IMG/VR virus record: IMGVR_UViG_3300044846_001093
Location: 1-64,000 of that record
Direction: 5' to 3' (one strand)
DNA length: 64,000 bases
Origin: a virus
Taxonomy: Duplodnaviria; Heunggongvirae; Uroviricota; Caudoviricetes
Part shown: positions 5,818-43,209 of the stretch, in pieces
Numbering within the stretch: position 1 is the first letter of the stretch
Layout of the letters: each line of letters begins with the position of its first letter
Notes under the pieces: generated by a model
What the model saw: only the letters and a program-made list of their open reading frames with translations
Told to the model about the DNA's origin: nothing
Databases searched by the model: none
Made by a program: the position numbers and the translations under genes

Positions 5818-5844
5818 AGAACCATACCAGACAGAAAGACACCA

Positions 5845-6156: not shown

Positions 6157-6184
6157 AGAACCATACACCAGAGAAGGAAAGAAC

Positions 6185-6421: not shown

Positions 6422-6514
6422 TATGAGCAAACGAACTGGCTTGATCATATGGGCCGTTACAGCCCTTGCGTTTCATGTTGCGGCATTCTCATTGGCTTAT
6501 TTGGGATTACTGAA

Positions 6515-7223: not shown

Positions 7224-7227
7224 TATA

Positions 7228-7595: not shown

Positions 7596-7774
7596 AAAAC
7601 ACCCAACTAGGTAAAGTCCTCACACAGGAGCACCACGACTACCTGATTTGCCTGAGGGATTCTGGTGAGACCAATATGTGGGGAGCTACACCATATATTG
7701 AACGGGAGTTTGGTGTACCATACGTGGATGCCAAGACTATCCTATTGGAGTGGATTGAGTATATGTCTAAGTGA
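7592..7774 (+). CDS. Hypothetical early protein, 60 aa
   Basis: ATGA overlap. Ends at the conserved TGAGTACTTT element. Confidence 0.45.
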   Translation: MKNTQLGKVLTQEHHDYLICLRDSGETNMWGATPYIEREFGVPYVDAKTILLEWIEYMSK

Positions 7775-7789
7775 GTACTTTTACTGTAC

Positions 7790-7817
7790 TTGACAATTAC
7801 CGGATTCCTGGTATAAT
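7790..7817 (+). promoter_or_regulatory. Early promoter P9 (cassette family)
   Basis: tacttgacaattaccggattcctggtataatagagtc. Confidence 0.75.
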
Positions 7818-7823
7818 AGAGTC

Positions 7824-8310
7824 ATACCAGAGAGAAATACTAAGGCAACAACAAGTACTAGAGTAGATGGAAACCGACCCACGCGAGAATGCGTGGGCTT
7901 TGCGAAAGCAACGATGCGAGAGTAAGTCGGTCCAGTAGGGTAAGGAAAGAAGTTGCTGGCGGAAAAGCTGCTGGCCAGGACAGAAGTTAGGAAACTAACG
8001 CCGTGTAATCCTGGCATCATATTGAAGCACATTAGATCCTTTAGTATTCGGGCTCCACGGACCAACGGGTACTATCCCTTTTAGTGTGCTTCAATATGAC
8101 ACAAAAGTACTCTTCATGGACAAGGCTAGGCACATATGAACGCATAGCCGAGCGCCTGCTGATAGGACAACCTAAGCCAAAGCTATGGGGTCGGCTGGTA
8201 GGACACCGCTTTGAGACAGGCACCAAGAGTCTACACAGGACACCTCAGAGCCGTAGGTGGCGCCTGTTCTGGCGACTCAAAGACAATCGCCAGAAATGAA
8301 TACTTTCTAC
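7824..8310 (+). ncRNA. Candidate structured non-coding RNA (~490 nt) transcribed from P9
   Basis: No plausible ORF on either strand between P9 and P10. Several strong helices: cccacgc/gcgtggg; 10-bp long-range ttgaagcaca/tgtgcttcaa; gccagga/tcctggc; ctggcga/tcgccag. Confidence 0.3.
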
Positions 8311-8314
8311 TGAC

Positions 8315-8342
8315 TTGACTCTTACCTGATTCCTGGTATAAT
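8315..8342 (+). promoter_or_regulatory. Early promoter P10 (TTGACT variant)
   Basis: ctgacttgactcttacctgattcctggtataatagagtc. Confidence 0.75.
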
Positions 8343-8401
8343 AGAGTCATACCAGAGAGAAAGATACCAAATCGTTTGAAGGATCGTTAAGGAGTAATGA
8401 T

Positions 8402-8584
8402 ATGGCTTACAATAATGGAAGCGGATATGACAAGGAAGCAGAATATGCTAAAAAGTCTATGACTGAATTGATCGCCATTCGTACCCAATTTGAATTGGCC
8501 GTGGTGAAACGTCCGAATGGTACATTCAATGAACACCTTGAATGGGTTAAGTTGAAAATTGCAGAACGCATTGGAAAGAAGTAA
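8402..8584 (+). CDS. Hypothetical early protein, 60 aa
   Basis: RBS taaggagtaatgatATG. Confidence 0.5.
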   Translation: MAYNNGSGYDKEAEYAKKSMTELIAIRTQFELAVVKRPNGTFNEHLEWVKLKIAERIGKK

Positions 8585-8585
8585 T

Positions 8586-8774
8586 ATGGCCGAAGTGAAG
8601 TTGGGAACACTGTATAAAGTCACAGTGACCGAATATGACTGTGGTGTCCAAAGGGTTGATGACAACGACACCAAGTATTTCACCACACTAGAGGAAGCGG
8701 AGAAGTATAAGGCACACTGGGAGACTGGTGGTAACCGCGAATGCTACTGGAGAGCCAGCATTACCAAAATGTGA
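8586..8774 (+). CDS. Hypothetical early protein, ~62 aa
   Basis: Start placed at MAEVKLG, immediately after the upstream stop. Confidence 0.45.
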   Translation: MAEVKLGTLYKVTVTEYDCGVQRVDDNDTKYFTTLEEAEKYKAHWETGGNRECYWRASITKM

Positions 8775-8775
8775 G

Positions 8776-8816
8776 TACTTTAGTCTTACACCAAGTTTAG
8801 TCAGGTATTGGTTGAC
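8776..8816 (+). repeat. 41-nt perfect direct repeat (copy B), immediately 5' of promoter P11
   Basis: Identical to 4378..4418. Confidence 0.8.
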
Positions 8817-8839
8817 TCTTACCGGATTCCTGGTATAAT
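8813..8839 (+). promoter_or_regulatory. Early promoter P11 (TTGACT variant)
   Basis: ggttgactcttaccggattcctggtataatagagtc. Confidence 0.75.
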
Positions 8840-8870
8840 AGAGTCATACCAGAGAGAAAGAGATACCAAG

Positions 8871-9053
8871 ATGAACTACACTGTCCAAGAACTCGCCCTC
8901 CAATACGCCGAAAAGCTGACCGCATATTACGAGGCTATGCAAAGCGACTGGGACGATAAAAGACGCCAAATCCAACGTGCGCGAGATGAAATGTATGCTG
9001 CACAAAACGCTTTGGCCTATGCCTGCGAACGCGCGGCTGAACTTCTGGCTTGA
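8871..9053 (+). CDS. Hypothetical early protein, 60 aa
   Basis: Start at MNYTVQEL after leader ...gagaaagagataccaag. Track ORF 8808 start lies upstream of the promoter. Confidence 0.5.
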   Translation: MNYTVQELALQYAEKLTAYYEAMQSDWDDKRRQIQRARDEMYAAQNALAYACERAAELLA

Positions 9054-9066
9054 ATAAGGAATTAAC

Positions 9067-9228
9067 ATGGAACCCCAATTGACTGTTGCGGAATTGATCC
9101 GCGTGTTGCAAGCATTGCCTAACCAGGACGCTTTGGTTGAGATGGCGATGAACCAAGAGTATCAGGACGCTGTGTATGCCTCGGACGTACATGTCTGGAG
9201 CGATGAACTGGTTATCATAGGAGAATAA
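9067..9228 (+). CDS. Hypothetical small early protein, 53 aa
   Basis: RBS aataaggaattaacATG. Confidence 0.4.
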   Translation: MEPQLTVAELIRVLQALPNQDALVEMAMNQEYQDAVYASDVHVWSDELVIIGE

Positions 9229-9231
9229 GAT

Positions 9232-9438
9232 ATGTCGTGGATATTAGATGGACAGAAAATCTCGGCTTGCTACCTTGGCATAGCCGTCACTGGTCGAGTT
9301 ATCTCCAGTCGCGTGAAGTATGGTGGCAGTGTCCAGTACTCCCTAGTACTGGACGAACCTGTCCAACTGCCATGGCGCACAGAATCTACCAGTTTTCTTC
9401 TGGTGGATAAGAACGAAGTTATTGAGGTGATTGGGTGA
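9232..9438 (+). CDS. Hypothetical early protein, 68 aa
   Basis: RBS ggagaataagatATG. Confidence 0.5.
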   Translation: MSWILDGQKISACYLGIAVTGRVISSRVKYGGSVQYSLVLDEPVQLPWRTESTSFLLVDKNEVIEVIG

Positions 9439-9702
9439 AGCATTACTTTGTGGTCTATAAGTCCTACCAAAGACCTGGGCTAGAGCACTTTGAGGTTGAT
9501 GCTGCTAATAAAGCCGAAGCCCGGAGACTGTTCCTGGAAGCCAACATCAAGCACGATTACATTATCAAGATCATCCTATGAGACAATGGACTGTTAGAGT
9601 TTACGATGGGTTTTCTACTCAAGAATTCCAGCGATACGGAACCTATGAACAAGTCCGCACAACCCTAGCTGGTTATCCTCCTGGATATATTTGGAGCATT
9701 CA

Positions 9703-9981
9703 ATGAACGAACGAATTAGAGAATTGTCGGATATCGCATACAAAAACCATCTAGCCAGGAATCCACATTCCTCCTTTGGTCGCCGATACGATTATGATAA
9801 AGAATTCGCCGAGTTGATTGTTCAGGAATGCATGACAATGTGCGACAATGTATCTGCTGATTATTTTAAGCATCGCAAAGCCGCAGATGATTTTCGAGAT
9901 AAGAATATCTATGCCGAAGGTGAATCGGCTTGTGACGAGGTACGATACGAGATTAAGAAACATTTCGGAGTTGAAGAATGA
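9703..9981 (+). CDS. MNERI/HFGVEE paralog family member 5, 92 aa
   Basis: MNERIRELSDIAY...KEFAELIVQECMT...KHFGVEE. Confidence 0.6.
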   Translation: MNERIRELSDIAYKNHLARNPHSSFGRRYDYDKEFAELIVQECMTMCDNVSADYFKHRKAADDFRDKNIYAEGESACDEVRYEIKKHFGVEE

Positions 9982-29554: not shown

Positions 29555-29967
29555 TTTATTTCCCTAAGAACTTCAGCAACTTTCAAGTCCACAGCTATGT
29601 CGGATGATATAATGTTCTGTCCTTTGATACCTCTTACCACACTCGGCATGTAATTTAGAAACAGCAAGTATGTTTTGAGTGTATGATAATCTTCTTTGTG
29701 TACGCGATAAAACAACAATCTAGTTGCAACCTCAACACCAAAAACATTATACAACACTATCAGGTGATTGATGACAAGACGCTCACGCATCTCGCCTTCT
29801 TTTCTGTACCTATAGAACAAGCGTTTCAAATAATTGAACCGCTTCATGTCTTCTTTGAACTCACTCATAATACAGTTGGGCTTATCGTAAGCCTTGACTG
29901 CATATAGTAGGACGTTCTCACTGGTCAAATCATCAAAAGACATTTTAGCTTTCGTCTTCCCCTTCAA
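29551..29967 (-). CDS. Hypothetical protein, 138 aa
   Basis: ATGA overlap. Confidence 0.45.
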   Translation of the reverse strand: MKGKTKAKMSFDDLTSENVLLYAVKAYDKPNCIMSEFKEDMKRFNYLKRLFYRYRKEGEMRERLVINHLIVLYNVFGVEVATRLLFYRVHKEDYHTLKTYLLFLNYMPSVVRGIKGQNIISSDIAVDLKVAEVLREIK

Positions 29968-30307
29968 GTTCAGACATTGCTTGTTCTACGCCACTTTCAT
30001 CCATAATTTCAGCATAAAAATCATAGTATCCATCATCCGTTGGATAATACAGAATATACAGAAAACTATCGCCAGATAAGTGTGTTGCTAATTCTTCACC
30101 TTCAGTGTTCAAATCATAAAGGGACTCAAATGCGATTCCCTCAAGATAAAGTATTTTACGAATCTTCGCGATACCAGATTCTGGTGTCAAGACAGGCTGA
30201 GTTAGCTCAACCATCAACATCAGATTGAGGTTATTCTGTGTCACAGGATCGATGGAGACTTCATCTCCACCTTCCATTGACTCTGTGATGAATTCTTTGA
30301 AATTCAT
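29945..30307 (-). CDS. Hypothetical acidic protein, 120 aa
   Basis: ORF. Confidence 0.45.
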   Translation of the reverse strand: MNFKEFITESMEGGDEVSIDPVTQNNLNLMLMVELTQPVLTPESGIAKIRKILYLEGIAFESLYDLNTEGEELATHLSGDSFLYILYYPTDDGYYDFYAEIMDESGVEQAMSELEGEDES

Positions 30308-30887: not shown

Positions 30888-30895
30888 TATTTATG
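30888..30895 (-). promoter_or_regulatory. Near-consensus late promoter (CATAAATA)
   Basis: Same 23-nt geometry to ATG as the consensus late promoter at 44012. One mismatch to TATAAATA. Confidence 0.25.
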
Positions 30896-32876
30896 TTTTG
30901 ATAATCTGTGATGAAAGCTCAGGTTCAGCTTGAAATGTATCAGCTTTCTCTTTGCTAGATGACTTAGAATTCTTAGCCAAATCTTTTACGATGCCAGCAG
31001 TCTTAGATAGTGATCGTCTTGCTGGTGTGCTAGTCTTTTCATAAGAATCTTCTGGCTCCTGCTCTTCCTTTAGCCCTGCTTGTTTACGTGCAGCAGTCTT
31101 CGCAAGATGCTTGACTCTAGACATTGCTGTGTGTTTTGCACCAGATTTGTCTGTTGTCACTTTCTTTGTGTTTTTGACATAAGGACCATCAAATGGAACT
31201 TCTTGGCGCTCTTTACCCAAGTCTGTTGCAGTTTGTTCAGCAGTAATGATAGGTGTTGGCTTCATAGGCTTCTTAGCTGGTCCAGATGTGAAACGACCTG
31301 CGTCTGGATTCTCGTTGGAGTTGCTAGTTTGACCAACTTCTTCCGCCACAACACTCTCAGCTTTGTACTTCTTAAACATATCAGTACCTTTTCTTGGCGC
31401 AAGACCTTGTGTGCGATATGCAGCAGCAGAAACAGCAGCGTATCGTTTCGTCTTCTTACTCGCTTCAGCGTTCGTGCCAGCACCTGGCAACTCTCTTGCG
31501 CTGTCCATTGCTTTATTGACATAAGAGCCAAGAGTTTTCTTAGACAACTCATCAATCTGCTCAACTTCTTCCTTCATATCATGTTTCTTCTTGAGATACT
31601 TTTCAACCTTGCGATCATATTCGCCTTTAGGTGATTTAGGTGTGCTGGTCTTCGCTTTGTCTAGAATTCTTTTATGTGCAGGATCAACTTCTTCCTTCAT
31701 CCCTGTACGGCGAGACTCACCTTCAATGTATGAGTGTAGAGATTCAACATCACTTTGAACTTTAGATAGTTTGTTCTGATACCACTCTTCAATTTCACCA
31801 CCCATCTCAATGAACTCAAGAATTTCTTCAGCAGCATACTTGATGAAATGCAGTTGCGTTTGAGCCATCTCAGTCTTTTCTGTGGTATCCGATTCAGCTT
31901 GCTCATTGATTTCAGCTTGTTTCAAAATACCTTTGACCAATGGTGCCTTCAATTGGCGATGACGCGGTACTGGAATGTGATGCTTTGCATCTGGATGTGT
32001 GTATACATCATGACTGCCTGATGTACGTGAGAGTTTCCAACCACGCTTCTTCAGATGTTGATGCACAGCACGGGTATCCATGTTAGCACCAGGCATTTCT
32101 TCTAGTTGTTCAACTTCCTCATGCTTCAATGTTCTCATTCCCGGATCAATGTTGCCTTTATTATCATAACGATGCTGAACACCTTTCTTACCTTGAGCTT
32201 CTAAATCTTTCATAGCCTTATTAGCGTCTGGATAGTTTGAATGTGTGCTAGTTTTGATCCAGTCACCTTTAGAATTTCTGTGACCTACGTGAATTGTTTC
32301 TTCCGTCACAACTTCAACAGACTCATCCCACTGCTTACCACGTGCCGCATTTCTAGCCGCAGCTTTTGCACCATAGTTCTGTTGTAGCCTCTCAGCATCA
32401 TACTTGTGTACTGTGGCGCCTTTAACCTTCTTTGCCACGTTCTCTGCATGAGACTTGGTTTCAAATGTCTTCCAGTGACGACCATTGACATGCACCGAGT
32501 GATAGTCTTTGGCATCAGCTTCGGCTAGTTCAACTTCCTCATTAGTCTGTGAGTTTTTCAAATCTTTCTCGGATGGTGCACCCTCTGAGCCAGGCTTACG
32601 CATACGTTCACCTGAGCCGCTCTTGATTCTTTCACGCTTGGCATGAATGTTGGCCCACAGACCAGCTTCTTCAATGGTTTCTTCTTTGACGGATTTGCCA
32701 GCCGATTTATCACCATAAGTTGCTTGACGTTTTTTAGCAAGGTCGATCTTATCTTTGACAGCTTTTCCTAACTTAGGATCAGCCTTCAACATCCATCCTG
32801 TTCCAAGAGACTTTTTACCCTCTTCCAAAATGTCCTCGCCGCGGACAAGACTTGCAATCTGCTTGAAACTTCTCAT
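30891..32876 (-). CDS. Large Lys-rich protein with embedded HicA/YcfA-like domain, 661 aa
   Basis: HQHLKKRGWKLSRTSGSHDVYTHPDAKHHIPVPRHRQLKAPLVKGILKQA matches the HicA fold consensus. Carries one EEVEQIDELSKKTLGSYVNKA module. Otherwise predicted disordered and K/E-rich. Confidence 0.55.
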   Translation of the reverse strand: MRSFKQIASLVRGEDILEEGKKSLGTGWMLKADPKLGKAVKDKIDLAKKRQATYGDKSAGKSVKEETIEEAGLWANIHAKRERIKSGSGERMRKPGSEGAPSEKDLKNSQTNEEVELAEADAKDYHSVHVNGRHWKTFETKSHAENVAKKVKGATVHKYDAERLQQNYGAKAAARNAARGKQWDESVEVVTEETIHVGHRNSKGDWIKTSTHSNYPDANKAMKDLEAQGKKGVQHRYDNKGNIDPGMRTLKHEEVEQLEEMPGANMDTRAVHQHLKKRGWKLSRTSGSHDVYTHPDAKHHIPVPRHRQLKAPLVKGILKQAEINEQAESDTTEKTEMAQTQLHFIKYAAEEILEFIEMGGEIEEWYQNKLSKVQSDVESLHSYIEGESRRTGMKEEVDPAHKRILDKAKTSTPKSPKGEYDRKVEKYLKKKHDMKEEVEQIDELSKKTLGSYVNKAMDSARELPGAGTNAEASKKTKRYAAVSAAAYRTQGLAPRKGTDMFKKYKAESVVAEEVGQTSNSNENPDAGRFTSGPAKKPMKPTPIITAEQTATDLGKERQEVPFDGPYVKNTKKVTTDKSGAKHTAMSRVKHLAKTAARKQAGLKEEQEPEDSYEKTSTPARRSLSKTAGIVKDLAKNSKSSSKEKADTFQAEPELSSQIIKT

Positions 32877-32877
32877 A

Positions 32878-34209
32878 TTACTCTCCTTTAGCTTGCTTTG
32901 TTGCTGTAGCGTACATCACAGACTTAGCATCTTTGCCATAACGCTCTTTGAAGCCAGCAATGTTCTTCTTCATGCCTTTGACATTCTTTTCCATTGCAGC
33001 CTTTTCGCCAGTGGACAATGAACGCTCTTCAATGTGCTCAACTTCTTCCTGTGTGACGCCACGTGGACCACGGTCATCTTTAACACCACCAGCTTTCATC
33101 AATGCAGCCCTGTCAGCATAGCTGGAACGCTTAACATCTTTAGCCGCAGTCTTGATTGTGGGAGTTTGATTTTTCTTGTCAATATGTTTCATTGCATCAA
33201 ATTTTGCCTCCGTGACTTGCTCAACTTCTTCTTTTTTCAGCATTTTCTTACCAGGTTCTGCTGCTTTATCTTTAGCCATTCGTTGTTTTTGCTTTTCTAC
33301 TGCGGCTCTATATTCAGGACTGTTTATATCTCTATATGGAGTTTTTTGTTTTTCTTTTGGGCCTGAACCCTCAACCACAACTTCTTCCTTAGCTAGACGA
33401 TCAACAGCTTTGCCCATGTTTTCGCGGCGCTTCCAAGACTTAGCAAACATCTTGTTGGATTTGTCGTCAGCTTTCTTTGCATCCCAATAATTTGAATCTT
33501 TTTTAGCAGCAGCCGAATCGTTAGCGAATTGGCGAGTCAATGCACCCTTGTGTGCCACATCATGAGATGCTTTCTTGACATAAGATGCTAGTGTAGACTT
33601 TTTCAATTCATCTAGTTGCTCAACTTCTTCTTTGGTCAGTCTGTCTGTGGCCTTGACAATAGAATCCGTTCTCTTATTCATATTTTTTGTGATGGGAGAC
33701 CACTTTTTCTTAGCAGCATACTGACCAGCACTAATACCTTTCTGGCCCAAATCAAAAGCTGCTTTTTTTACATATGAACCAAGAGTCTTTTTAGACAGTT
33801 CATCTAGTTGCTCAACTTGTTCGTTCTGAACAGCTTGCACGGCAGGCTTTGCAACTTGAGCTTTGCTCTTGCCCATAGACTTGTCTTGTGCAATCTTGAT
33901 TTCTTTGTTGAACTCTTCCTGAGATGCTTCCTCTTTTGTATACTTCTTAGTGTACACAGTGCCTGTGGAGATTTTCTTGGCTGTATGACCAGTCTTTTCA
34001 CCTTTTTCAGCCGTTTGGCGTGGAGTATTCTTCCAGTCAAATGGGCTAGCAGGCTTCTTGGCTTCCTCTTTGCGCAACAACTTGAAGTCGTGTGCATCAA
34101 CTTTGCCGTTTTTGTTTTTATCGATCTTGTGTTGATCGCCCTTTAGTGCTTCGTCCACAACAGCTTTCACTGCTTCGGCCACTGATTTTAGAATTTTATC
34201 GTTGAACAT
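32878..34209 (-). CDS. Lys-rich repeat protein, 443 aa
   Basis: Two copies of the (E)QVEQLDELSKKTLGSYVKKA..KG module plus degenerate EEVEQ/EEVEH copies. K ~20%. Confidence 0.55.
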   Translation of the reverse strand: MFNDKILKSVAEAVKAVVDEALKGDQHKIDKNKNGKVDAHDFKLLRKEEAKKPASPFDWKNTPRQTAEKGEKTGHTAKKISTGTVYTKKYTKEEASQEEFNKEIKIAQDKSMGKSKAQVAKPAVQAVQNEQVEQLDELSKKTLGSYVKKAAFDLGQKGISAGQYAAKKKWSPITKNMNKRTDSIVKATDRLTKEEVEQLDELKKSTLASYVKKASHDVAHKGALTRQFANDSAAAKKDSNYWDAKKADDKSNKMFAKSWKRRENMGKAVDRLAKEEVVVEGSGPKEKQKTPYRDINSPEYRAAVEKQKQRMAKDKAAEPGKKMLKKEEVEQVTEAKFDAMKHIDKKNQTPTIKTAAKDVKRSSYADRAALMKAGGVKDDRGPRGVTQEEVEHIEERSLSTGEKAAMEKNVKGMKKNIAGFKERYGKDAKSVMYATATKQAKGE

Positions 34210-34874: not shown

Positions 34875-35252
34875 TTAGCAATTCCATTTTCTTAGTGCGA
34901 GAGCTTTACGAGACGGCTCTCCGTTAGGTTTCTTCATCGGACCTTCCACTCCACCCATTCTAGCGCAGAATGACTTGCGACGGTTAGCAGCTTTACTGCC
35001 TGGTGTCAATTTTGATGGTGGTGTTGTGACTGGTGCTTTTAGATTGCCGCCATCTTTTCTGTTGTAGTAGTCACGGCCCTTTTGAGTTAGACCACCAGTA
35101 GAACTCTTCAGTCCTTTGGCATCAACTGCGGCTTCCACTACAGTTTCTTCTTTGACACAAGAATCGGGTGAGTATGCTTTCTTACCTGGAACAGGCTTGT
35201 ATTTTGACCAGCAACGACCGGCTTCATTGATAAAATCTGTAAATTTTTTCAT
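34875..35252 (-). CDS. Basic Lys/Pro/Gly-rich protein, 125 aa
   Basis: ATGA overlap with the 820-aa gene. Confidence 0.4.
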   Translation of the reverse strand: MKKFTDFINEAGRCWSKYKPVPGKKAYSPDSCVKEETVVEAAVDAKGLKSSTGGLTQKGRDYYNRKDGGNLKAPVTTPPSKLTPGSKAANRRKSFCARMGGVEGPMKKPNGEPSRKALALRKWNC

Positions 35253-37711
35253 AAGTAGTTCTTTGCTTTAAATGTGCTTAGTGATATGCCCTGTTTAGCA
35301 AGTTCATCCTGTTTCTGTGCACCAATTGATGCTGTGGTTGAATCGCCACCCATTTCAGCAACTGGCTTCTTCTTCAAAGGATTCACTTTGCCACTCTTGT
35401 CATTGATCTCACCCATGTCGCGGCCGATGCTTTCGCCACCAGCCGCCATTGACATGCCAACTTCTACGCCTTTGTCGATGGCTTCTTTGAATGAGCTTTT
35501 GGCTTGCGAGAGGGTGAGCTTGCCTTTATAGCGGCTGGCTTCTTGGATGTTTTTGGAGCTGGCTTTGGCTCCTGTACTACCACTGATGCTTCTACCTTCG
35601 GTAATGGTTGTGGCTCCGGTAATACTACTGGCTCTGGTACTACCACTGGTGCTTCCACCTTCGGTAATGGTTGTGGCTCTGGTTCCACTGGTGGTTTGCT
35701 CTTCACAAAGAAACTTTTCAGAAATTTCAACATTTACATTCTCCTTCAATTTGACTATGTAACCTTTGTCTGTCTTGACCACTTCACCACCTTTGGTGTG
35801 TGCGTCTTTAGCAGCATTGTTTCGTATTGCATATACTTTAGGCTTATTGCCAGATGCAATATATGTAGCTCCGTCTTTTACGACTGTTCTTTCACCACTA
35901 ATACTTTCAGAGACAAACATAGGCTTGCCGAGCGTGAGAAGATTGTATGCACCAGAATCGGACATTACTATCTGATCCACGTGCTCTTCAACTTCTTGCT
36001 CCTCAGCATCTCCATTGCCTGTCATCATCTGTATTGTTTTTTGCAATTCTTCTGGAGTATCAGCTTTGAAAGTGACTGAAACAGCTTCAAAAAGATTCTG
36101 GAAATCTTCATTGATAGACTCTTTGACTGGTTTCTTGCGCGTGGGCTTCTGGCTACTAGCTCCACTCATAGGAACTTCAGCAGTCTTCTTGATCATCTTT
36201 TGCTGTTCAGTGTGTGTTGGATCCTGCACCAAAGTTCCATGAACTGAGTGATGCGTGACTTTACCATTCTTGCCGTATCTGCCATAGCCATAGTATTGAA
36301 GACCAAGGCGTCTAGCTTCATCAGTTGCTTTGTTTTCACCCTCAGCGGAGTGTGGAAGAGACTGTTCTGTGCCTTTCTTAGGAATAGGCAGTGTGTCTTT
36401 CTTCTGTAGTTCACCAGCAACCCATGCTTTAGCTTGTTCGTTCTTAGGTGGTGCTTGCACAAACTTTTGAACAGTCTTGAAGACTTTATCCATTTCCTCT
36501 TTTTTGGCTTTGACAACTTCTGGTGGTGCATTGCGCAAGTCTTCGGAGTTATCAAATTCAACATAACTGTTGCCAAACAGTTTAGCCATATCTGGGCGTG
36601 AATTGTGTACTGCGTCCCACTTTTCTTTACGAATGTTCTCGGGAACTGTACGACCACCTCTTTGCCCACGTTCAACGTTTCTCTGTGCAGAAACTTCATC
36701 TTGTGTGACAACTGCGACCATAGAAGTTTCGTAGCCAATCTCTTCTAGGTTCTTCTTTATCTTAGCATACTTTGCAGGATCATCGCCTGTGCCATTGATA
36801 ATGATACCGTTACGACCTAACAGCGCCAGCTTTTGCTTTAACTCTGTCATGTCTTTTGCTTTACCGCGAACAAGGGTTCGTGCGTCAGCTTCAGTCTCTG
36901 GCATTTTCTTGTCCAGATTGTTCTTATCCATCAGGAACTCAAGTGCTTTGTCTGAGTTGATTTCAATCAATCCATGACCAGCGAGTGTGTTATCCAGCAC
37001 ATAGTCTTTGCCTGAGCCTGGACCACCAGATAGAAACACAGCCTTGAAAATGCCTTTATCGTGGACACCTTCAGATAGAATCATCTGAATTTGTGATCGG
37101 AAGTCTTCTTTGACTTGCATTCCCTTACGCACATCGCTATACAATTCTTTAGCGTGTTCTGGTGCTACGTGACTTGGAATGCCTTTTTTAAATTCTTTGA
37201 AGTTGCCTTTTGATGCATGACTGCGCATCTTGGATGCAGACATACCAGATACGCCCTCAGCATCAGGATCGCGTTCACCAGCGGAGTGTACGTGAATACC
37301 ACGGAACTTGAAGTATCCATGCGTACCTTTTACGCCATTGTATTTGTGTAATATCTTTTCGTACTCACCAGTTCTATCGGAGCCTGCAACCATGTGCAAG
37401 TGTGTAGCGCCAGCTTTGTGGAGTTTTGATGCTTGAGCCAGAAAGTTTGGATGTTCTTTACTGGAGGTTGTGATATTCGTGTCAGGAAAATATCGTTGTG
37501 CGTGTTTGACTTTTTGCTCACCTGAGAGTGGATTCTTCTCAGCGTCCTGTGAATGCGATAGAACAACGTGGTGTGTTCCCTTCACAGATTTAGCAACATC
37601 TTTGACTTTATCAACCAGTTTTGCATGACCGGTTGTTGGTGGATTCATGCGGCCGAAAGCAAGGACCGCATGTTTTTCTGTTGTTTCTTCTAGATATTCT
37701 ATAAACTTCAT
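35249..37711 (-). CDS. Multidomain protein: N-terminal NadM-like NMN adenylyltransferase (HxGH NTase) + P-loop kinase + long Lys/Ser/Thr-rich disordered tail, 820 aa
   Basis: FGRMNPPTTGH matches NadM/NadR GRFxPxHxGH. SGMSASKMR matches ISGTxIR. Walker A LSGGPGSGKDY, and IINGTGDD. C-terminal TTITEGxSxSGST repeats. Confidence 0.55.
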   Translation of the reverse strand: MKFIEYLEETTEKHAVLAFGRMNPPTTGHAKLVDKVKDVAKSVKGTHHVVLSHSQDAEKNPLSGEQKVKHAQRYFPDTNITTSSKEHPNFLAQASKLHKAGATHLHMVAGSDRTGEYEKILHKYNGVKGTHGYFKFRGIHVHSAGERDPDAEGVSGMSASKMRSHASKGNFKEFKKGIPSHVAPEHAKELYSDVRKGMQVKEDFRSQIQMILSEGVHDKGIFKAVFLSGGPGSGKDYVLDNTLAGHGLIEINSDKALEFLMDKNNLDKKMPETEADARTLVRGKAKDMTELKQKLALLGRNGIIINGTGDDPAKYAKIKKNLEEIGYETSMVAVVTQDEVSAQRNVERGQRGGRTVPENIRKEKWDAVHNSRPDMAKLFGNSYVEFDNSEDLRNAPPEVVKAKKEEMDKVFKTVQKFVQAPPKNEQAKAWVAGELQKKDTLPIPKKGTEQSLPHSAEGENKATDEARRLGLQYYGYGRYGKNGKVTHHSVHGTLVQDPTHTEQQKMIKKTAEVPMSGASSQKPTRKKPVKESINEDFQNLFEAVSVTFKADTPEELQKTIQMMTGNGDAEEQEVEEHVDQIVMSDSGAYNLLTLGKPMFVSESISGERTVVKDGATYIASGNKPKVYAIRNNAAKDAHTKGGEVVKTDKGYIVKLKENVNVEISEKFLCEEQTTSGTRATTITEGGSTSGSTRASSITGATTITEGRSISGSTGAKASSKNIQEASRYKGKLTLSQAKSSFKEAIDKGVEVGMSMAAGGESIGRDMGEINDKSGKVNPLKKKPVAEMGGDSTTASIGAQKQDELAKQGISLSTFKAKNYL
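35567..35704 (-). repeat. Imperfect in-frame tandem repeat (~45-nt unit, about 2.5 copies) inside the 820-aa gene
   Basis: ggctc[ct]ggtactaccactg[ag]tgcttc[tc]accttcggtaatggttgt repeated. Encodes TTITEG.S.SGST units. Confidence 0.6.
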
Positions 37712-37765
37712 TTACTCCGCCTCTACAGCAAGTTTCATTATAGTCTATTTAGCAAAAAACAAATG

Positions 37766-38458
37766 TCAATCGTGAATCAGTTCTCCGGTTCTGGCGATTC
37801 TTCCAGTACAATACACACGATCAACCTCAACCAACTTGTCCTTAGGAATGTTCAAGAAATGGGCATGTTCGGTGTCCATTGAGCTAAGGCAGTCAAATAC
37901 ACCATTGAGAACGCCGAAATATTCATCAGCAAGACTACCACATAGAGAATAGAGCCTAGTATCAATACAGTGAGTTGCACCCATAACAACAGGATTCATC
38001 CATGTGGCATTCCTTCGTTTGAACACATATTTGCCCTGCTTGTCAGCATAATATGATATGTCAAAACCATCATCAAGAACATACCTACCAGATATCTTGA
38101 AAATTCTGTCGTATTTCAATTCATTTTTGAAAAGAAAATTCATCATTTCCATCATAATAACAGTCTCACTCTTACTCTGATATCTATTCTCAGAGAACAA
38201 TTTGACTGCCCTGTGGTCGTTGAAACTCACAATCTTACAGTATCTCTGCAACTCATCTGCTATTCCACCAAGCGATGCCATGGATATATCAGCGAGAAAA
38301 ATATCAGCGGTTGGATCTTTCTCACGAATTGACTTGAGTGTCTTTATGGTGTCTTCAAATCTTTCCATAGAATTGAAGACACCACTGTTCGTTAGCAATG
38401 CTGAGGTTACAATGAATACGTTCATGTGTGATTGAAATCTTTGAATATGACAAACCAA
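37766..38458 (-). CDS. Hypothetical protein, 230 aa (glycan-cluster member)
   Basis: ORF. Confidence 0.45.
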   Translation of the reverse strand: MVCHIQRFQSHMNVFIVTSALLTNSGVFNSMERFEDTIKTLKSIREKDPTADIFLADISMASLGGIADELQRYCKIVSFNDHRAVKLFSENRYQSKSETVIMMEMMNFLFKNELKYDRIFKISGRYVLDDGFDISYYADKQGKYVFKRRNATWMNPVVMGATHCIDTRLYSLCGSLADEYFGVLNGVFDCLSSMDTEHAHFLNIPKDKLVEVDRVYCTGRIARTGELIHD

Positions 38459-39237
38459 TAGCCTGGATTGACATAGTTGATTTTGAAGTCGTGTGGCGAC
38501 ATTCTATATGACATTAGCAACATGGACTGATCATCATCAATCAAATCAACGTTGACGTAACTCATCAATGCGTTTGTCATTAGTTTAGCCATTTTCTTCC
38601 ACTTGTCAATCGGTGCAACAATATGACAGCCCTGAACATACACGTTGTTTGTTTTGACAATATTGAATATGGGTTCAGCTTCGTCTGGATTAGAGAAACA
38701 GAATAGATTGATTAGATTCTGTGTGTTGAATTTCCATTCCATACCAGGTGGACAGAATGTATCTTCACGCACATAACCAAAGTCTAGCCAAGCAGCAGTG
38801 CCTGTCGGCACATAACCCATCTCAATCGCAGTATTTACAAACAGAGACTTGGCGTAATTTATGAACACATAATGTGGCGACCAATACTCAGGCATTGTTG
38901 GCTGATTTAGGTGTGCAATAAACTCAGGTCGTCTTTGAATGTGTGCTATGCGCCCAAGCAATTGTTTGTTGTCTTCAAAAATATTATCGGAAGGCACACA
39001 AATGATATCGTCACGATAACTTTTGATAGTATCAATGAACTTGCTTTCAGTGAATACTACGATAGGATTCTTTAGCTCTGTTAGTCGCTTAAATCTATCC
39101 AAATATGTTTGTGTGTCACGCTTGAGGTAGTGTGGCAGTGGCTGACCATTCAGGGAGCCTTCCCAGTTTGATCGGCCAATATCAAAGAACGCGGTGACAA
39201 TGGTGACAGTTTCACTCATTTCTTGATCCAGTACCAA
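38422..39237 (-). CDS. HtrL/YibB-like putative LPS-biosynthesis glycosyltransferase, 271 aa
   Basis: N-terminal TIVTAFFDIGRSNW motif, characteristic of the HtrL_YibB family as I recall it. Confidence 0.4.
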   Translation of the reverse strand: MVLDQEMSETVTIVTAFFDIGRSNWEGSLNGQPLPHYLKRDTQTYLDRFKRLTELKNPIVVFTESKFIDTIKSYRDDIICVPSDNIFEDNKQLLGRIAHIQRRPEFIAHLNQPTMPEYWSPHYVFINYAKSLFVNTAIEMGYVPTGTAAWLDFGYVREDTFCPPGMEWKFNTQNLINLFCFSNPDEAEPIFNIVKTNNVYVQGCHIVAPIDKWKKMAKLMTNALMSYVNVDLIDDDQSMLLMSYRMSPHDFKINYVNPGYWFVIFKDFNHT

Positions 39238-39770
39238 ACATCATTAGGGCAAGTTTGAACTTCAGCGCCATGCTTTGCTGCAAATTCATTGACTGCACGA
39301 TTCACACCCTCAATGACATTGTAGTCATGGCCGGCGAATACACCACCAGATTTTACCTTACTGAAGTAATTCTCACAGTCAATTGTGACTTGTTCATATG
39401 TGTGTAGACCATCAATGAATATGAAATCTAGAGAATCATCTTCAAAATGATTGACCATGTTATCTGAGAAATCACGATGCATAATGAATCTATCACCGAA
39501 CTCAGCACAGTAGTCTAAAATTTGTTTATGCATGTCAACACGATCAGACAAGAATCTACCATTCCAATCTTGATAGTTCACATAGGGATCAATTCCATGT
39601 AATACCAATTCAGGTAAGTTTCTCAGCAAGTAATGTGTTGTATGACCTTCAGCACAGCCAATCTCCAAGCCGACTTGTGGTCCTTTGCCTTGCAAAAGCA
39701 GTAGAAGTCCTTTACCAGAACAAATCCACTCATCCGCAGGATTAGTATTCAATACAAGATATTCGCTCAT
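39216..39770 (-). CDS. Class I SAM-dependent (O-)methyltransferase, TylF/MycF-like, 184 aa
   Basis: LEIGCAEGHTT (motif I). IFIDGLHTYEQV. Confidence 0.55.
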   Translation of the reverse strand: MSEYLVLNTNPADEWICSGKGLLLLLQGKGPQVGLEIGCAEGHTTHYLLRNLPELVLHGIDPYVNYQDWNGRFLSDRVDMHKQILDYCAEFGDRFIMHRDFSDNMVNHFEDDSLDFIFIDGLHTYEQVTIDCENYFSKVKSGGVFAGHDYNVIEGVNRAVNEFAAKHGAEVQTCPNDVWYWIKK

Positions 39771-39779
39771 AATTTTCTC

Positions 39780-40667
39780 TCATGTAGTAATAGTAAAATA
39801 CTTAGGTGATGACCCAGTATCAGTTTCAGTTGTAATCTTCACATCATACTTATCATAGAAGTATTTGACCCATTCAGGAACGCGATCATACTGATGCACA
39901 ATAACAAAAGGTTTACCATCAGCATTCTTCACTATACCATCTTCCATGTATGGTCGTTCTTCTAGCAAGTGTGGTCCAAATTCTTCCATATGATTAGGCA
40001 TATTTGTCACATGTGCATTGACTGCCCAACCATCCATCAGTGGAAGATATGTTGTTACAGTATTCCATGGTTTGAAACTCAGCAGCATGTTGTATGCGGC
40101 TTGATCCGCAACCCAATCCGCACGATTACCAGACATTTGAAATAGCGCAAAGCACAAGTCTTTGATGTATTCTGTTGTGCCAGCTAGAATGCCAACGTTG
40201 AAGACTTCATGATCTTTGATATCTTCATAGAAGTATTGACCGAAGTTCTTGATGATGTTATCGCGATTCCATTGCTCATGGCGAATCAGAATGGCTTCAG
40301 ACTGTGCAATAATTCCTTTATCTCTGCTACCATACAGTTTTTGCATGTATAAGCTAGGATTGCTTTGAAATATAACATCCCGAACATCTGTGGTAATAAC
40401 ATAACGATATTTGTTATGGTGCTTTTTCAGAAAATCATAGATGTATAGAAATCGCATCATGTGAATCATCATGTTGCCTTGCTTAGGGTGTTCAATCACA
40501 GTTACACCAGCATCTTCAATCTCCAACACAATACTCTTCGGTGCATCAATCGCAATCAATACAACATCACCATCAAAGTCAGTTTCTTTGATTGAATTAA
40601 TCCAAGGTTTGACAACGTTGAAGTCGCTGTAGTTGCTAAAAGCACCAATGATTAAATCTTTCGCCAT
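39780..40667 (-). CDS. Hypothetical protein, possible nucleotide-sugar transferase, 295 aa
   Basis: ORF in glycan cluster. No firm motif. Confidence 0.4.
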   Translation of the reverse strand: MAKDLIIGAFSNYSDFNVVKPWINSIKETDFDGDVVLIAIDAPKSIVLEIEDAGVTVIEHPKQGNMMIHMMRFLYIYDFLKKHHNKYRYVITTDVRDVIFQSNPSLYMQKLYGSRDKGIIAQSEAILIRHEQWNRDNIIKNFGQYFYEDIKDHEVFNVGILAGTTEYIKDLCFALFQMSGNRADWVADQAAYNMLLSFKPWNTVTTYLPLMDGWAVNAHVTNMPNHMEEFGPHLLEERPYMEDGIVKNADGKPFVIVHQYDRVPEWVKYFYDKYDVKITTETDTGSSPKYFTITT

Positions 40668-41380
40668 GGATAATTTCCTTTCAATTCTTGTTGCATCATA
40701 TTATTACCACGAATGAAGAATGAGTCCTGTACAGAGTCTGCACGACTGGCTACTCTGTAGTTTACACTATATTGACCATTCGTGTCAAATGTTTTTGACT
40801 TGGCCATCATAAAGGCCGAGAGAATTCTATCAACTTCTGGCTGATCGTCAGGATGTCTAGCTCTACGATACCAATACGGAGCAAATGAAAGTGCGGCCAG
40901 CTTTGGTATCATGAAGCAGTTCACATCAACGAAATTGTCACCAATGACAGACTTCCATTTACCTAAGGACTCACAATCATCGTTGCAAATGTAATTACCA
41001 CCTTGATCAACAATCTTGCGTAATGAGTATGCCCAATCATTACCTCGTGTGAGTTGATTGACTAGCGATTCAATATGATTTTCATCATACCAATTATCTT
41101 GGTCTAGAAAGCACAGATATTCACCTTCAGCGATAAATGTCATCGCGCCATAGATGCGATGACCATTGTATTGGCTATGACCTGTGTTATATGGTAATGT
41201 AAGTATACTAGCATATCGCGATCCAACAATGGAATCTAGTGCATTTTCATAATGCTCAACTCCATCAACAACGATTAGATGCTGGATGTTTTTGTATGTT
41301 TGATTATCAACAGACCGAACTGCATCAGCTAGTTGTGCAGAACCTGTTGTTGGTGTAATTACTGTGATCAATGGATTCAT
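40652..41380 (-). CDS. Glycosyltransferase family 2 (GT-A fold)
   Basis: LITVITPTTGSAQLADAVRSVDNQTY. DxD-like FLDQDNWY. Confidence 0.75.
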   Translation of the reverse strand: MNPLITVITPTTGSAQLADAVRSVDNQTYKNIQHLIVVDGVEHYENALDSIVGSRYASILTLPYNTGHSQYNGHRIYGAMTFIAEGEYLCFLDQDNWYDENHIESLVNQLTRGNDWAYSLRKIVDQGGNYICNDDCESLGKWKSVIGDNFVDVNCFMIPKLAALSFAPYWYRRARHPDDQPEVDRILSAFMMAKSKTFDTNGQYSVNYRVASRADSVQDSFFIRGNNMMQQELKGNYPWRKI

Positions 41381-41396: not shown

Positions 41397-41702
41397 TTAC
41401 TGACCTGGTGTATCTCGTTTATATCGCTTGACTAGCGTGTCTGTACCATCTTGACCAGCGCCAGCTACAGGAAGAATGTCTGGATTAGGAGACTTCTTTT
41501 CTTCATGCACACTTTTATGTAGCTGAACTCCAGTGACTTTCTGGACCATATCCCAAGCATCTTTTGTTCGCTTGTTCTTCACATGATCATCAAATTTCTT
41601 CTTCTGATCTGGTGTAGCTTTTTGCTTGAATTTGATAAGCTCCATGATGCCGATGTTACCAGCATAAGCGGCTTCTTTGACAAGTTCTTTGAACGACTGC
41701 AT
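41397..41702 (-). CDS. Hypothetical Lys-rich protein, 101 aa
   Basis: ORF. Confidence 0.45.
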   Translation of the reverse strand: MQSFKELVKEAAYAGNIGIMELIKFKQKATPDQKKKFDDHVKNKRTKDAWDMVQKVTGVQLHKSVHEEKKSPNPDILPVAGAGQDGTDTLVKRYKRDTPGQ

Positions 41703-41989
41703 TATTCGCCTCGCGTCAATGTTAGTATTTTTTGTATTTGTGATTCTATCATTGGACCACGATTAGGCCATTTGATGACAGGCTGATCAGCAGTCTTCAG
41801 TAATCTAGTCAGAAATGGAATTATCAGCTTTTCCAATTCTTTCATTCGCTTCTTATACTCTTCAACCGTCTCGTCCTTCTGCGCAATGACAGCAGTGAAG
41901 TCTTCTTCCTGTTCTGCGGTGAAACCGAAGTCGTCATCACCATATTCTTCCATGATCTTGGTCAGATCAAACTTTTTCATTTGTCCCAC
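41702..41989 (-). CDS. Hypothetical acidic protein, 95 aa
   Basis: ORF. Confidence 0.45.
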   Translation of the reverse strand: MGQMKKFDLTKIMEEYGDDDFGFTAEQEEDFTAVIAQKDETVEEYKKRMKELEKLIIPFLTRLLKTADQPVIKWPNRGPMIESQIQKILTLTRGE

Positions 41990-43209
41990 GCTTTCTGGGC
42001 GGTGAAGTTGGCATGGCTGAATTCAAGTCTATCAACTAGCTTGACTGCATTGCCTTTCAATCTATCAACAGCAACAAAGCCTTCTGGATTTGTAACTTTG
42101 AATCCATTATCAGTACGCAAGAATGCACCAGTGACTTGACGCATCTGTTGCAATTTCTTGATGATTATGTTTTTTGAATCTACGATCATGTTCATAATAT
42201 CAAAAATCTTTACAAGCTCGGCAAAGTTGTTTCTGTAGAATCGCATGATCTCATTCTTTTCAGCTTGACGCTTTAGCTTAGTGTCTTCTCTCTTAGCTGC
42301 AATAATCTCTTTATTCAACTTGTCTTCAATCCACTTCAACAATCCTTTTGCATGTTCGGTTGTATCCTTGATGTGTTCACCGGAACGCACTTTCGTGTTG
42401 TTGTATGTCTTGATCTGCACATTGAATATTTCAGAGGTAGCAATACGATTTAGTGTCATGCTACTGGTTCTTTGAAATAATGAGCCGGCTTGAGATAGTA
42501 TGGCTGTGATTTCTTTAGTCTCTTTTTCGGTAAATGTTACTGTGCCAGATGCATCAACAAAATATGCATCACGGAACCAAACATCTTTAGTTGCTTTCAT
42601 TCTACCGATATCAATGTTGAATGAAGCCTTCAAATCTGCAATTGTCTTTCCTGTGTATGCTGTGTGAAACACGATACCCATTTGTGCAGCCAACATAGAC
42701 TTAGCCAGTGCAGAGTCTTCAGGAACTGCATACACAAGTGTATTTGGCTGAAATGTCACATACTTTACACCATCAATCGTTGCTTTCTTGATATCGCCTT
42801 TAGCAAACATCATATCGCCTTGCAGAATGCCGTCAATACCAATCTTTGGCAAGTATGCTAGTGCAACTTTCAATTTCTTATTCAGTCCTTCACCAGGATG
42901 ATTTCTATCAATATCATCATCTGTGTAGTTTAGCTTTGCATCCTTGTTGAAGATACCCTTTGTAGCAACAAAGAATTTACCATTCTCAGGATTAGTGCCA
43001 GCAAATACAGCAGGTGCACCATCCCACTTCGTGCTGACGTATACCTTACCATCTGAGTTGCCAGCAAGCATGTCTCTAAGTGATCGCAAAAAGTTAATTG
43101 CATCCCTCGTACCAGCTACACCACGATTTAGAACTTCTTCCTCAATATGCTCTAGGTGAACGTTCTTGCCTTCTTTTGAGGCCTCTGTTAGGAATTCTTT
43201 GAATTTCAT
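41977..43209 (-). CDS. rnlA: RNA ligase 1 family (T4 RnlA/gp63-like)
   Basis: Motif I STKWDGAPAVF...KG (KxDG). Motif IV NPEGFVAVDRLKGNAVKLVDR parallels T4 Rnl1 EGYVAV...KIK. 410 aa. Confidence 0.6.
   Translation of the reverse strand: MKFKEFLTEASKEGKNVHLEHIEEEVLNRGVAGTRDAINFLRSLRDMLAGNSDGKVYVSTKWDGAPAVFAGTNPENGKFFVATKGIFNKDAKLNYTDDDIDRNHPGEGLNKKLKVALAYLPKIGIDGILQGDMMFAKGDIKKATIDGVKYVTFQPNTLVYAVPEDSALAKSMLAAQMGIVFHTAYTGKTIADLKASFNIDIGRMKATKDVWFRDAYFVDASGTVTFTEKETKEITAILSQAGSLFQRTSSMTLNRIATSEIFNVQIKTYNNTKVRSGEHIKDTTEHAKGLLKWIEDKLNKEIIAAKREDTKLKRQAEKNEIMRFYRNNFAELVKIFDIMNMIVDSKNIIIKKLQQMRQVTGAFLRTDNGFKVTNPEGFVAVDRLKGNAVKLVDRLEFSHANFTAQKAWDK

Follow-up and report, generated by a model that had tools for sequence, protein, structure and literature searches.

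What use would a T4-like phage have for a single long protein that joins a nucleotidyltransferase to a kinase, and at which stage of infection would this protein act? The question is raised by an open reading frame (ORF) at positions 35249-37711 on the minus strand of the first 64,000 nucleotides of the IMG/VR virus record IMGVR_UViG_3300044846_001093 (Caudoviricetes). This 64-kb stretch, hereafter called the window, is the replication module of a T4-like phage (products include DNA polymerase, UvsX, gp41, gp44, gp45, primase, NrdA/B, ThyX, and CobS-like and MazG-like proteins) and belongs to a genome of which about 100 kb lie outside it. The ORF exists as described in an initial annotation of the sequence: it starts with ATG, has a GGAG ribosome-binding site 4 nt 5' of this codon, and encodes 820 amino acids (aa). 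Its product (the target) had been interpreted as a fusion of a nicotinamide mononucleotide (NMN) adenylyltransferase (NMNAT), a P-loop kinase, and a disordered repeat tail, possibly involved in NAD+ salvage or counter-defence. The analyses presented here somewhat favor the view that it is a capsid-targeted, virion-carried two-enzyme protein of the "cytidylyltransferase/NMNAT-like" family of T4-like cyanophages and pelagiphages. The following parts were distinguished:

37685-37711 (-), residues 1-9: N-terminus MKFIEYLEE, resembling a capsid-targeting signal (CTS) of the T4 type, with an L-x-E prohead-protease site
37097-37672 (-), residues 14-205: nucleotidyltransferase domain of the HIGH superfamily (TxGH), based on PHROG, AlphaFold2 (AF2) and Foldseek
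36392-37072 (-), residues 214-440: P-loop kinase domain, based on Pfam, PDB profile searches and Foldseek
35252-36391 (-), residues 441-820: tail rich in Lys, Ser, Thr and Gly, based on composition and per-window conservation
36218-36316 (-), residues 466-498: conserved mobile motif RRLGLQYYGYGRYGKNGKVTHHSVHGTLVQ

The target represents a large metagenomic family. One search matched 4869 of 8000 scored candidates, and a second search of a library of 1.8 billion proteins yielded 5468 cluster representatives (E<=1e-3). Full-length homologues (58-96% identity) are located on contigs of about 165 kb that also carry uvsX, the gp41 helicase gene and other T4-like genes, and no DNA nearly identical to the window was present in the isolate phage collection.

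Putative capsid-targeting signal and occurrence in virions

The CTS of the T4 internal proteins, MKTYQEFIAE, is removed by cleavage right after this sequence of about 10 residues (PMC8442874). The N-terminus of the target is built alike, with (L/I)-x-E at the end of a stretch of about 10 residues, and 28 full-length homologues all share its M1, F3, L7, and E9. CTS-like motifs were found in 115 of 119 close target homologues as well as in all 119 homologues of the neighboring DUF6267 protein. Five ORFs in the window begin with such a motif, compared to 0.22 expected by chance, and the core motif occurs nine times in window ORFs, with five of these occurrences being N-terminal. Besides the target gene, the CTS-bearing set comprises four neighboring genes:

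34875-35252 (-): DUF6321 gene, 125 aa (Pfam DUF6321, E=7.7e-26), CTS-like start MKKFTDFINEA
41977-43209 (-): DUF6267 gene, 410 aa, CTS-like start MKFKEFLTEA, conserved partner of the nucleotidyltransferase
29945-30307 (-): ORF of 120 aa, CTS-like start MNFKEFITES, candidate encapsidated protein
41397-41702 (-): ORF of 101 aa, CTS-like start MQSFKELVKEA, candidate encapsidated protein

Orthologues in cyanophages have comparable starts, namely MKSFTSFFTEA in P-TIM68, MRFRQFIIEA in S-SZBM1_140, and MKKFSAFLSEA in Syn9 gp184.

Homologues of the nucleotidyltransferase domain (N-domain) were identified by tblastn in 555 phage records, 549 of which cover at least 80% of the domain. About 460 of these records are T4-like phages of Synechococcus and Prochlorococcus; further members were found in pelagiphage HTVC008M, the OM43 phage Melnitz, and several jumbo phages. 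The domain belongs to the cyanophage "cytidylyltransferase" family (PHROG 3041/395, T4-GC190), which has been detected by liquid chromatography-mass spectrometry in CsCl-purified virions of S-SZBM1 (PMC9146016), S-CREM2 (PMC10665884), and S-SCSM1 and S-CBWM1 (PMC9602691). Earlier authors have described it as NMNAT-like and virion-associated and have suggested that it is carried into the host (PMC9602691, PMC10665884). The S-SZBM1 protein, S-SZBM1_140, shares 39% identity with the target (E=3e-33) and is encoded at the same locus between gp41 and the primase gene. The CTS-like N-terminus offers a mechanism for the detection of this family in virion proteomes, and a nucleotidyltransferase-kinase placed behind a T4-style CTS is so probably carried in the head and injected. 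The guess that the gene neighborhood encodes virion-packaged proteins is strongly backed by the CTS-like starts and by the virion proteomics of orthologues.

Nucleotidyltransferase domain

Two motifs of the HIGH superfamily, T26-T-G28-H29 and S158-x-x-K161-x-R163, are present in the N-domain. They lie in the sequences quoted in the initial annotation, which were recovered with small shifts in numbering as residues 15-29 (AVLAFGRMNPPTTGH) and 155-163 (SGMSASKMR) and whose conservation down to 35% identity is not a product of chance. At this level of divergence, little or no variation is seen at G20, R21, G28, H29, N60, P61, D112, R113, G145, R147, S158, K161, and R163, and a set of 24 diverse members is uniform at G28, H29, S158, K161, and R163. 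Profile searches assigned the domain to PHROG 3041 (E=5e-66) and PHROG 395 (E=3e-43), both of which are labelled "cytidyltransferase". The match to Pfam CTP_transf_like (PF01467) stayed below the cutoff (17.9 versus 21 bits), which is exceeded by the relatives P0172, P0210, and P0236. In the AF2 model the domain adopts a Rossmann-like alpha/beta fold with a predicted local distance difference test (pLDDT) score above 90. The nearest solved folds are NadR and NadD, and TmcAL is also among the structural hits obtained by Foldseek.

Assignment to a characterized enzyme family was less straightforward. A profile of the 24 members matched MJ0951/TmcAL-like proteins (8e-4), phosphopantetheine adenylyltransferase (PPAT; 0.04-0.24), RibF (0.25), and the NMNAT of M. 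jannaschii (0.6) among the PDB sequences. In an NCBIfam scan of the same members, weak matches that span the (H/T)xGH region only were obtained for nadR (17/24), NadD (16/24), PRK01153 (14/24), archaeal NMNAT (8/24), and coaD (7/24). The best NMNAT-type score (E=6e-6) was far below the curated cutoffs, and the best coaD match reached 2.6e-3. None of the equivalog cutoffs for NadR (TIGR01526), NadM (TIGR01527), NadD (TIGR00482), or PPAT (CoaD, TIGR01510) was reached; for the target itself, TIGR01526 gave 17.4 bits over residues 17-84 only, the cutoff being 341. Comparisons of the N-domain alignment with E. coli proteins by hhalign were discarded as a means of assignment: the probabilities (NadR 11.7%, NadD 1.8%, CoaD 19%) all stayed below 20%, and the matches did not extend beyond the (H/T)xGH region. 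The motif is of a mixed type, as "GR" follows the NadM pattern and "TxGH", in which the first His of HxGH is replaced by Thr, the PPAT pattern. The earlier reading as an NMNAT is supported by the larger number of weak NMNAT matches, and not by TxGH, the hhalign probabilities, or the family thresholds. Membership in the NadR, NadM, NadD, or PPAT families is not established by these sequence comparisons, and the most fitting description of the domain is a separate branch within the HIGH superfamily that is specific to phages, with NMNAT/NaMNAT enzymes as nearest solved folds.

Kinase domain and two-domain fold

The kinase domain contains the Walker A motif GGPGSGK235 (G229-x-x-G-S-G-K235), located in residues 226-237 (FLSGGPGSGKDY), the sequence IINGTGDD at residues 304-311, and the lid R344-N-x-x-R348-G-x-x-G-G-R354. 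Down to 35% identity, little or no variation occurs at G229, S233, G234, K235, R354, and N388. The nearly invariant D254 is the putative general base. Pfam identified Zeta_toxin (PF06414; E=4.5e-13, 49.5 bits versus a cutoff of 22.3) and AAA_33 (PF13671; E=4e-8, 34.1 bits versus a cutoff of 27), and PHROG 505 "polynucleotide kinase" matched with 5e-4. Among PDB sequences, the kinase profile ranked adenylate kinase AK1 (2e-7) before UMP/CMP kinase (1e-5), the polynucleotide kinase (PNK) of T4 (2.4e-4), and zeta toxin (1.7e-3). No kinase domain of NadR (ribosylnicotinamide kinase, RNK) was among the 60 best matches listed. Of the initial proposal that the kinase is of the PNK/zeta/RNK type, the PNK and zeta parts were recovered by this profile, and the RNK part was not among the matches listed. 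A phmmer search with the whole target protein against PDB gave only marginal adenylate kinase matches and was not considered further.

The lid RNVERGQRGGR aligns with RLLKRGETSGR of AK1 (E=2e-7), but the target family does not qualify as a nucleoside monophosphate (NMP) kinase of the adenylate or UMP/CMP type because both Arg residues that bind the NMP phosphate are replaced. These residues, which we take to be R44 in GDLLR and R97 in GYPR of AK1, correspond to N-S-D254-K-A-L-E and N-G-T-G-D-D in the target family. Among P-loop kinases, PNK, zeta toxin, and dephospho-CoA kinase (DPCK) phosphorylate hydroxyl groups by using an Asp as base. Since the Arg pair is replaced and D254 is nearly invariant, a hydroxyl group is the likely acceptor, and the kinase would combine an adenylate-kinase-like lid with a putative Asp-type hydroxyl-acceptor site.

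The check by AF2 and Foldseek that had been proposed with the initial annotation was performed for residues 1-440 with an alignment of 34 sequences. The resulting model is confident (mean pLDDT 87.5) and consists of two well-defined alpha/beta domains connected by a flexible linker (residues 207-212). Together with the conserved motifs it bears out the predicted order, in which a nucleotidyltransferase of the HIGH superfamily precedes a P-loop kinase. The top Foldseek match in PDB was Lactococcus NadR (6gyf/6gzo), which aligned over about 447 columns across both domains (E=8e-6, i.e., about 1e-5) at 12% identity and with a template modelling (TM) score of only about 0.26-0.31. It was followed by the PNK domains of C. 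thermocellum and T4 (TM 0.65-0.68) and by adenylate and UMP/CMP kinases and ATP sulfurylase with an APS-kinase-like domain (1i2d); TmcAL, zeta/PezT, and NadD were among the matches as well. The target model shows the two-domain arrangement of NadR, an NMNAT fold followed by a P-loop kinase fold. As NadR is the best match over both domains, the "NadR-like architecture" is real at the level of fold, whereas membership at the level of family is not established, the thresholds not even being approached (17 versus 341 bits for TIGR01526).

Tail, mobile motif and domain shuffling

The "disordered repeat tail" of the initial annotation is indeed rich in Lys, Ser, Thr, and Gly, but it contains just one imperfect duplication of 21 aa (63-nt unit, 35566-35691, 84% identity), and the possibility of a pure tandem-repeat array was therefore rejected. 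Moreover, three islands (residues ~461-500, 601-660, and 741-820) are conserved among full-length homologues, with variable stretches in between. The tail alone matched no family in Pfam or PHROG. Its first island contains the 35-aa motif with the consensus (R/K)LGLxYYGxGRYGKxGxVTHxSxxGKLV, for which no known family was matched either. The motif follows the Walker A motif at a fixed distance of ~237 aa in 32 of 114 kinase-bearing representatives, whereas it lies between the CTS and the nucleotidyltransferase in Syn9 gp184 (residues 16-51; blastp E=0.001) and P-TIM68 gp158 (residues ~22-52).

The DUF6321 gene is located directly downstream of the target gene and its start overlaps the target stop codon (ATGA). 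In the relatives P0210 and P0218, a nucleotidyltransferase and/or kinase is followed by a long stretch and a C-terminal DUF6321. Since nucleotidyltransferase-kinase proteins elsewhere end in this domain, the 125-aa gene is a split-off C-terminus. Further representatives combine DUF6267 with the nucleotidyltransferase, or the kinase with a Pol-beta nucleotidyltransferase and a HIGH nucleotidyltransferase, and a weak ART-PolyVal match (below the Pfam cutoff) precedes the nucleotidyltransferase and kinase. The order of the latter two domains varies among fusions, and they may also be encoded by neighboring genes. In HTVC008M, for example, the kinase (gp129) and the nucleotidyltransferase with its tail (gp130) are encoded by separate adjacent genes in reversed order, and the sole cyanophage match to the kinase is a homologue contained in the "minor head protein" of PSS2. 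By analogy, such shuffling is the pattern of injected "polyvalent proteins" as outlined in the passages covered of Iyer et al. (2017).

The partner protein DUF6267

DUF6267 was found in 466 phage records, which essentially are the same set of cyanomyoviruses, and its gene normally adjoins that of the nucleotidyltransferase. It has the invariant motifs K61-x-D-G (motif I), Q-G-D (motif III-like), N-P-E-G-F-V-A-V (motif IV), and V-K390-L-V-D-R (motif V), a set that is characteristic of covalent nucleotidyltransferases. The structural model is of moderate quality (pLDDT 71.6, low around K61), and neither Foldseek nor a PDB profile search with DUF6267 gave a significant match. Judging from the motifs, DUF6267 probably has the fold of a polynucleotide-ligase-type (KxDG) enzyme.

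Proposed function and alternative explanations

If the target is a virion-carried two-enzyme protein, MKFIEYLEE, which matches the T4 motif, would work like the CTS of the T4 internal proteins and direct the protein into the prohead core, and a gp21-type prohead protease would cut off the peptide after Glu9. The basic Lys-rich tail may then accompany the packaged DNA, favoring retention in the head, and the protein would be ejected with the genome into the next host; virion association is taken from the proteomes of homologues, the ejection itself is predicted. In the host, the two linked active sites would act in sequence on one small substrate, a chemistry suggested by fold and motifs. The substrate would be phosphorylated on a hydroxyl group first and adenylylated thereafter, the way NadR works; CoA synthase, with the two steps reversed, is a conceivable model as well. 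In this scheme packaging draws on motif identity and orthologue proteomics, and cleavage, ejection, and chemistry are predicted steps. We regard a packaged two-step enzyme as fairly probable. Since NadR is the top fold match and the profile matches lean weakly towards NMNAT, the conversion of nicotinamide riboside (NR) via NMN to NAD+ is the most specific candidate reaction, by which the host would be pre-loaded with NAD+-making capacity. This specific substrate assignment is tentative. Given the missed family thresholds and the lack of NadV, PnuC, and Nudix among the window genes scanned, NAD+ salvage or counter-defence is therefore still a hypothetical role. A more far-reaching and rather unlikely scenario is that an injected NR kinase (NRK)/NMNAT rebuilds NAD+ at genome entry and acts together with the CTS-tagged, ligase-like DUF6267, whose cofactor might be regenerated; immunity that depletes NAD+ or relies on nucleases would thereby be countered pre-emptively by virion-borne enzymes, a strategy that would be widespread in T4-like phages of marine and freshwater habitats.

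Several observations weigh against the favored reading or its NAD+ variant. The CTS function of MKFIEYLEE is proposed from similarity alone, and virion presence is extrapolated from orthologues in four cyanophages rather than taken from a proteome of this phage; the authors of the proteomes cautioned that virion preparations may contain co-purified soluble proteins of high abundance (PMC10665884, PMC9602691). The T4 late box TATAAATA occurs five times in the window (2.65 expected) and never 5' of the target gene, and the promoter region looks like the sigma-70 type: the site TTGACA-N16-TAGACT (37742-37769, minus strand; 10/12 matches) is situated directly 5' of the target, and a TATAAT occurs a few bases further on. 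A window scan for sigma-70 promoters and terminators gave nothing above chance. T4-like cyanophages retain the nucleotidyltransferase without a kinase of the target type. As for the substrate, the kinase is not NadR-RNK-like by sequence, and profile comparisons of the N-domain, both with PDB and by hhalign, cannot separate NMNAT from PPAT. The NAD+-depleting defences yield nicotinamide and ADP-ribose and not NR. None of NadV, PnuC, or Nudix was found among the scanned genes of the window, beyond which the remaining ~100 kb extend, and the universal ligase-like partner points towards nucleic-acid chemistry.

This last point is the core of an alternative in which the phage injects a "heal-and-seal" kit for nucleic acids: the kinase would phosphorylate 5'-OH ends, the CTS-tagged DUF6267 would seal them, and the nucleotidyltransferase would be an accessory that, for instance, regenerates the ligase cofactor, so that phage DNA or host tRNA/RNA is repaired after nuclease cuts following injection. 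Such a kit would explain the invariant KxDG, EGFV, and K-L-V-D-R motifs of DUF6267 and its fusion or adjacency to the nucleotidyltransferase across ~460 phage genomes, and the best single-domain folds for the kinase are indeed bacterial and T4 PNK, in line with the T4 PNK profile (2.4e-4) and PHROG 505 (5e-4) matches. However, the substrate-binding Arg of PNK three residues past the catalytic Asp (presumably R38 in T4 PNK) is not conserved in the target family, AK1 outscores PNK in the profile search, and an end-healing phosphatase domain is absent. Furthermore, we know of no role of HIGH-type nucleotidyltransferases in a ligation pathway, and the DUF6267 model is only moderate and low in confidence near K61, with no significant structural or profile matches; we consider the kit unlikely. 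That the target is a cytoplasmic, non-packaged NadR-like (NRK and NMNAT) enzyme, which rebuilds NAD+ against Sir2, TIR, or Thoeris during infection, would agree with the top structural match to NadR, the dominance of NMNAT models among the weak NCBIfam matches, and the existence of the phage pathway NARP3. This explanation is quite unlikely: the CTS and the virion proteomics argue for packaging, all family scores are far under threshold, PnuC and NadV were missing from the window genes scanned, and an NR route would not recycle the nicotinamide and ADP-ribose released by the defences.

Packaging is retained if the target is a host-takeover toxin of the zeta/AvrRxo1 type, whose injected kinase would phosphorylate a metabolite of the nucleotide-sugar or NAD type (for example, UDP-GlcNAc or NAD at its 3'-OH) with the nucleotidyltransferase supplying or altering a nucleotide, thus weakening the cell wall or stopping host metabolism at entry. 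Pfam Zeta_toxin is the best kinase match, zeta and PezT recur in the fold and profile matches, the PSS2 kinase homologue resides within a minor head protein, and zeta-like kinases fused to MuF head proteins appear as injected effectors in the covered passages of Iyer et al. (2017). Since the zeta match (1.7e-3) is weaker than that of AK1 and since a toxin leaves the conserved link to the nucleotidyltransferase and DUF6267 unexplained, we judge this very unlikely. Activation of a precursor (NDP-sugar or CDP-polyol, as by HldE, TagD, or the AfhE-type enzymes of phage DNA glycosylation) for the glycosyltransferase/methyltransferase cluster at 37766-41380 was also considered, as four or five sugar-modification genes (HtrL_YibB, Methyltransf_24, two glycosyltransferases) lie directly upstream of the target gene. 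HldE domain II and TagD are members of the HIGH nucleotidyltransferase superfamily, and bifunctional kinase/nucleotidyltransferase enzymes serve phage DNA arabinosylation. This is nevertheless highly improbable because the cluster is absent from the equivalent locus of HTVC008M, S-SZBM1, Syn9, and P-TIM68, where the nucleotidyltransferase is kept, a CTS and virion packaging fit biosynthesis poorly, and no sugar-nucleotidyltransferase model of NCBIfam was matched. The least probable of all is a CoA-synthase-like combination of PPAT and DPCK, which the initial annotation had named as its alternative. The TxGH motif and the stretch "KKNPL-S-x-EQ" align with PPAT (E=0.04-0.2), the hhalign match to CoaD (19% over 51 columns) is the longest of the three comparisons, and weak Walker A matches to DPCK occur. 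However, the top 50 fold matches include NadR and NadD but not PPAT, only 7 of 24 members match coaD, and the DPCK matches are limited to the P-loop.

Published work already covers the nucleotidyltransferase family, its labelling as NMNAT-like, and its occurrence in virions. In contrast, the kinase fusion, the shared T4-type CTS, the split DUF6321, the mobile 35-aa motif, and the ligase-like DUF6267 were not found in the literature searched, and queries for "cytitidyltransferase" or DUF6267 retrieved no papers. The family is widespread and recurs in virion proteomes without an explanation; a T4-type CTS on the target and its neighbors would provide a concrete packaging mechanism and, for a phage clade that is abundant and uncultured, a candidate set of injected proteins. 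Should the virion-borne enzyme synthesize NAD+ or work together with DUF6267, phages would inject metabolic or repair enzymes as counter-defence in the first minute of infection. Otherwise, the misleading "cytidylyltransferase" annotation would still be corrected and a probable fold be available for two Pfam DUFs.

Other features of the window

The sugar-modification cluster between the DUF6267 gene and the target gene (37766-41380, minus strand) encodes a 230-aa protein, an HtrL_YibB-like protein, a Methyltransf_24 protein, and two glycosyltransferases and may have a role in glycosylation of DNA or the virion. On the other side of the target, a 661-aa Lys-rich protein (30891-32876, minus strand) contains a PHROG 16028 motif (residues 71-109) and an embedded HicA-toxin domain (residues 271-323; Pfam E=1e-12) and may likewise be a multi-domain effector that is injected. 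The adjacent 443-aa Lys-rich protein (32878-34209, minus strand) has internal repeats of the type EEVEQLDELxKKTLxSYVKKAxxD and no CTS-like start.

The stretch at 3289-9850 (plus strand) has almost no ORFs of at least 100 aa. An interpretation as non-coding DNA was rejected, as it is a tight array of about 25 small ATG-initiated genes (50-110 aa), which are oriented opposite to the rest of the window, as is typical of early-gene blocks in T4-like phages. Scans of the window with Rfam and for tRNAs gave no matches.

Comparison with known systems

NadR and the enzyme Bas30_86 of the phage pathway NARP3 have the same order and fold of the two catalytic domains as the target, and NadR shares with it the implied logic of two steps, kinase then adenylyltransferase. 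Identity to NadR is only ~12%, and the target kinase is closer to AK1/PNK than to NadR RNK. NARP3, a NadR-like phage NAD+ pathway published in 2026 (PMC13464706), is an expressed pathway consisting of a transporter (PnuC-like, for NR) and an enzyme, with virion packaging unmentioned, whereas the target has a CTS and a tail and no PnuC-like partner among the window genes scanned. The architecture, which the initial annotation took for a new variant, is not new in kind, given NARP3 and the earlier description of the N-domain family as NMNAT-like and virion-associated.

Eukaryotic CoA synthase (PPAT and DPCK) and PAPS synthase/fungal ATP sulfurylase are fusions of the same two superfamilies, and ATP sulfurylase with an APS-kinase-like domain (1i2d) was among the top fold matches of the target; there is no sequence match at family level, and domain order and substrates differ.

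With regard to packaging, T4's internal proteins (IPI/II/III) and Alt resemble the target in their basic character and in an N-terminal CTS that spans about 10 residues and has (L/I)-x-E at its end, and their genes likewise form clusters of diverse, fast-evolving genes. The internal proteins of T4 are, however, small inhibitors or DNA-associated proteins, whereas the target is a large two-enzyme protein whose cleavage and ejection are predicted. Like the target family, the polyvalent proteins of Iyer et al. (2017) unite disparate, shuffled enzymatic domains in one injected polypeptide; in the target family these are the nucleotidyltransferase, kinase, DUF6321, DUF6267, weak ART-PolyVal, and Pol-beta nucleotidyltransferase domains. 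In the covered passages of that paper the polyvalent proteins have a MuF or MPTase hub in place of a T4-type CTS and include no HIGH-type nucleotidyltransferase, and the terms "cytidylyltransferase" and "NMNAT" occur 0 times in its full text.

The cyanophage virion proteins of the "cytidylyltransferase/NMNAT-like" type (Syn9 gp184, S-SZBM1_140, S-SCSM1 ORF91, and S-CREM2 ORF154) possess a homologous domain (37-44% identity, E down to 1e-43), and such proteins share with the target the gp41-primase locus, the CTS-like N-terminus, the DUF6267 partner, and the 35-aa GRYG motif. Four examined members, among them Syn9 gp184, P-TIM68 gp158, and S-SZBM1_140, are 362-401 aa long and have no kinase; to this common plan the target adds a P-loop kinase and a tail of 380 aa.

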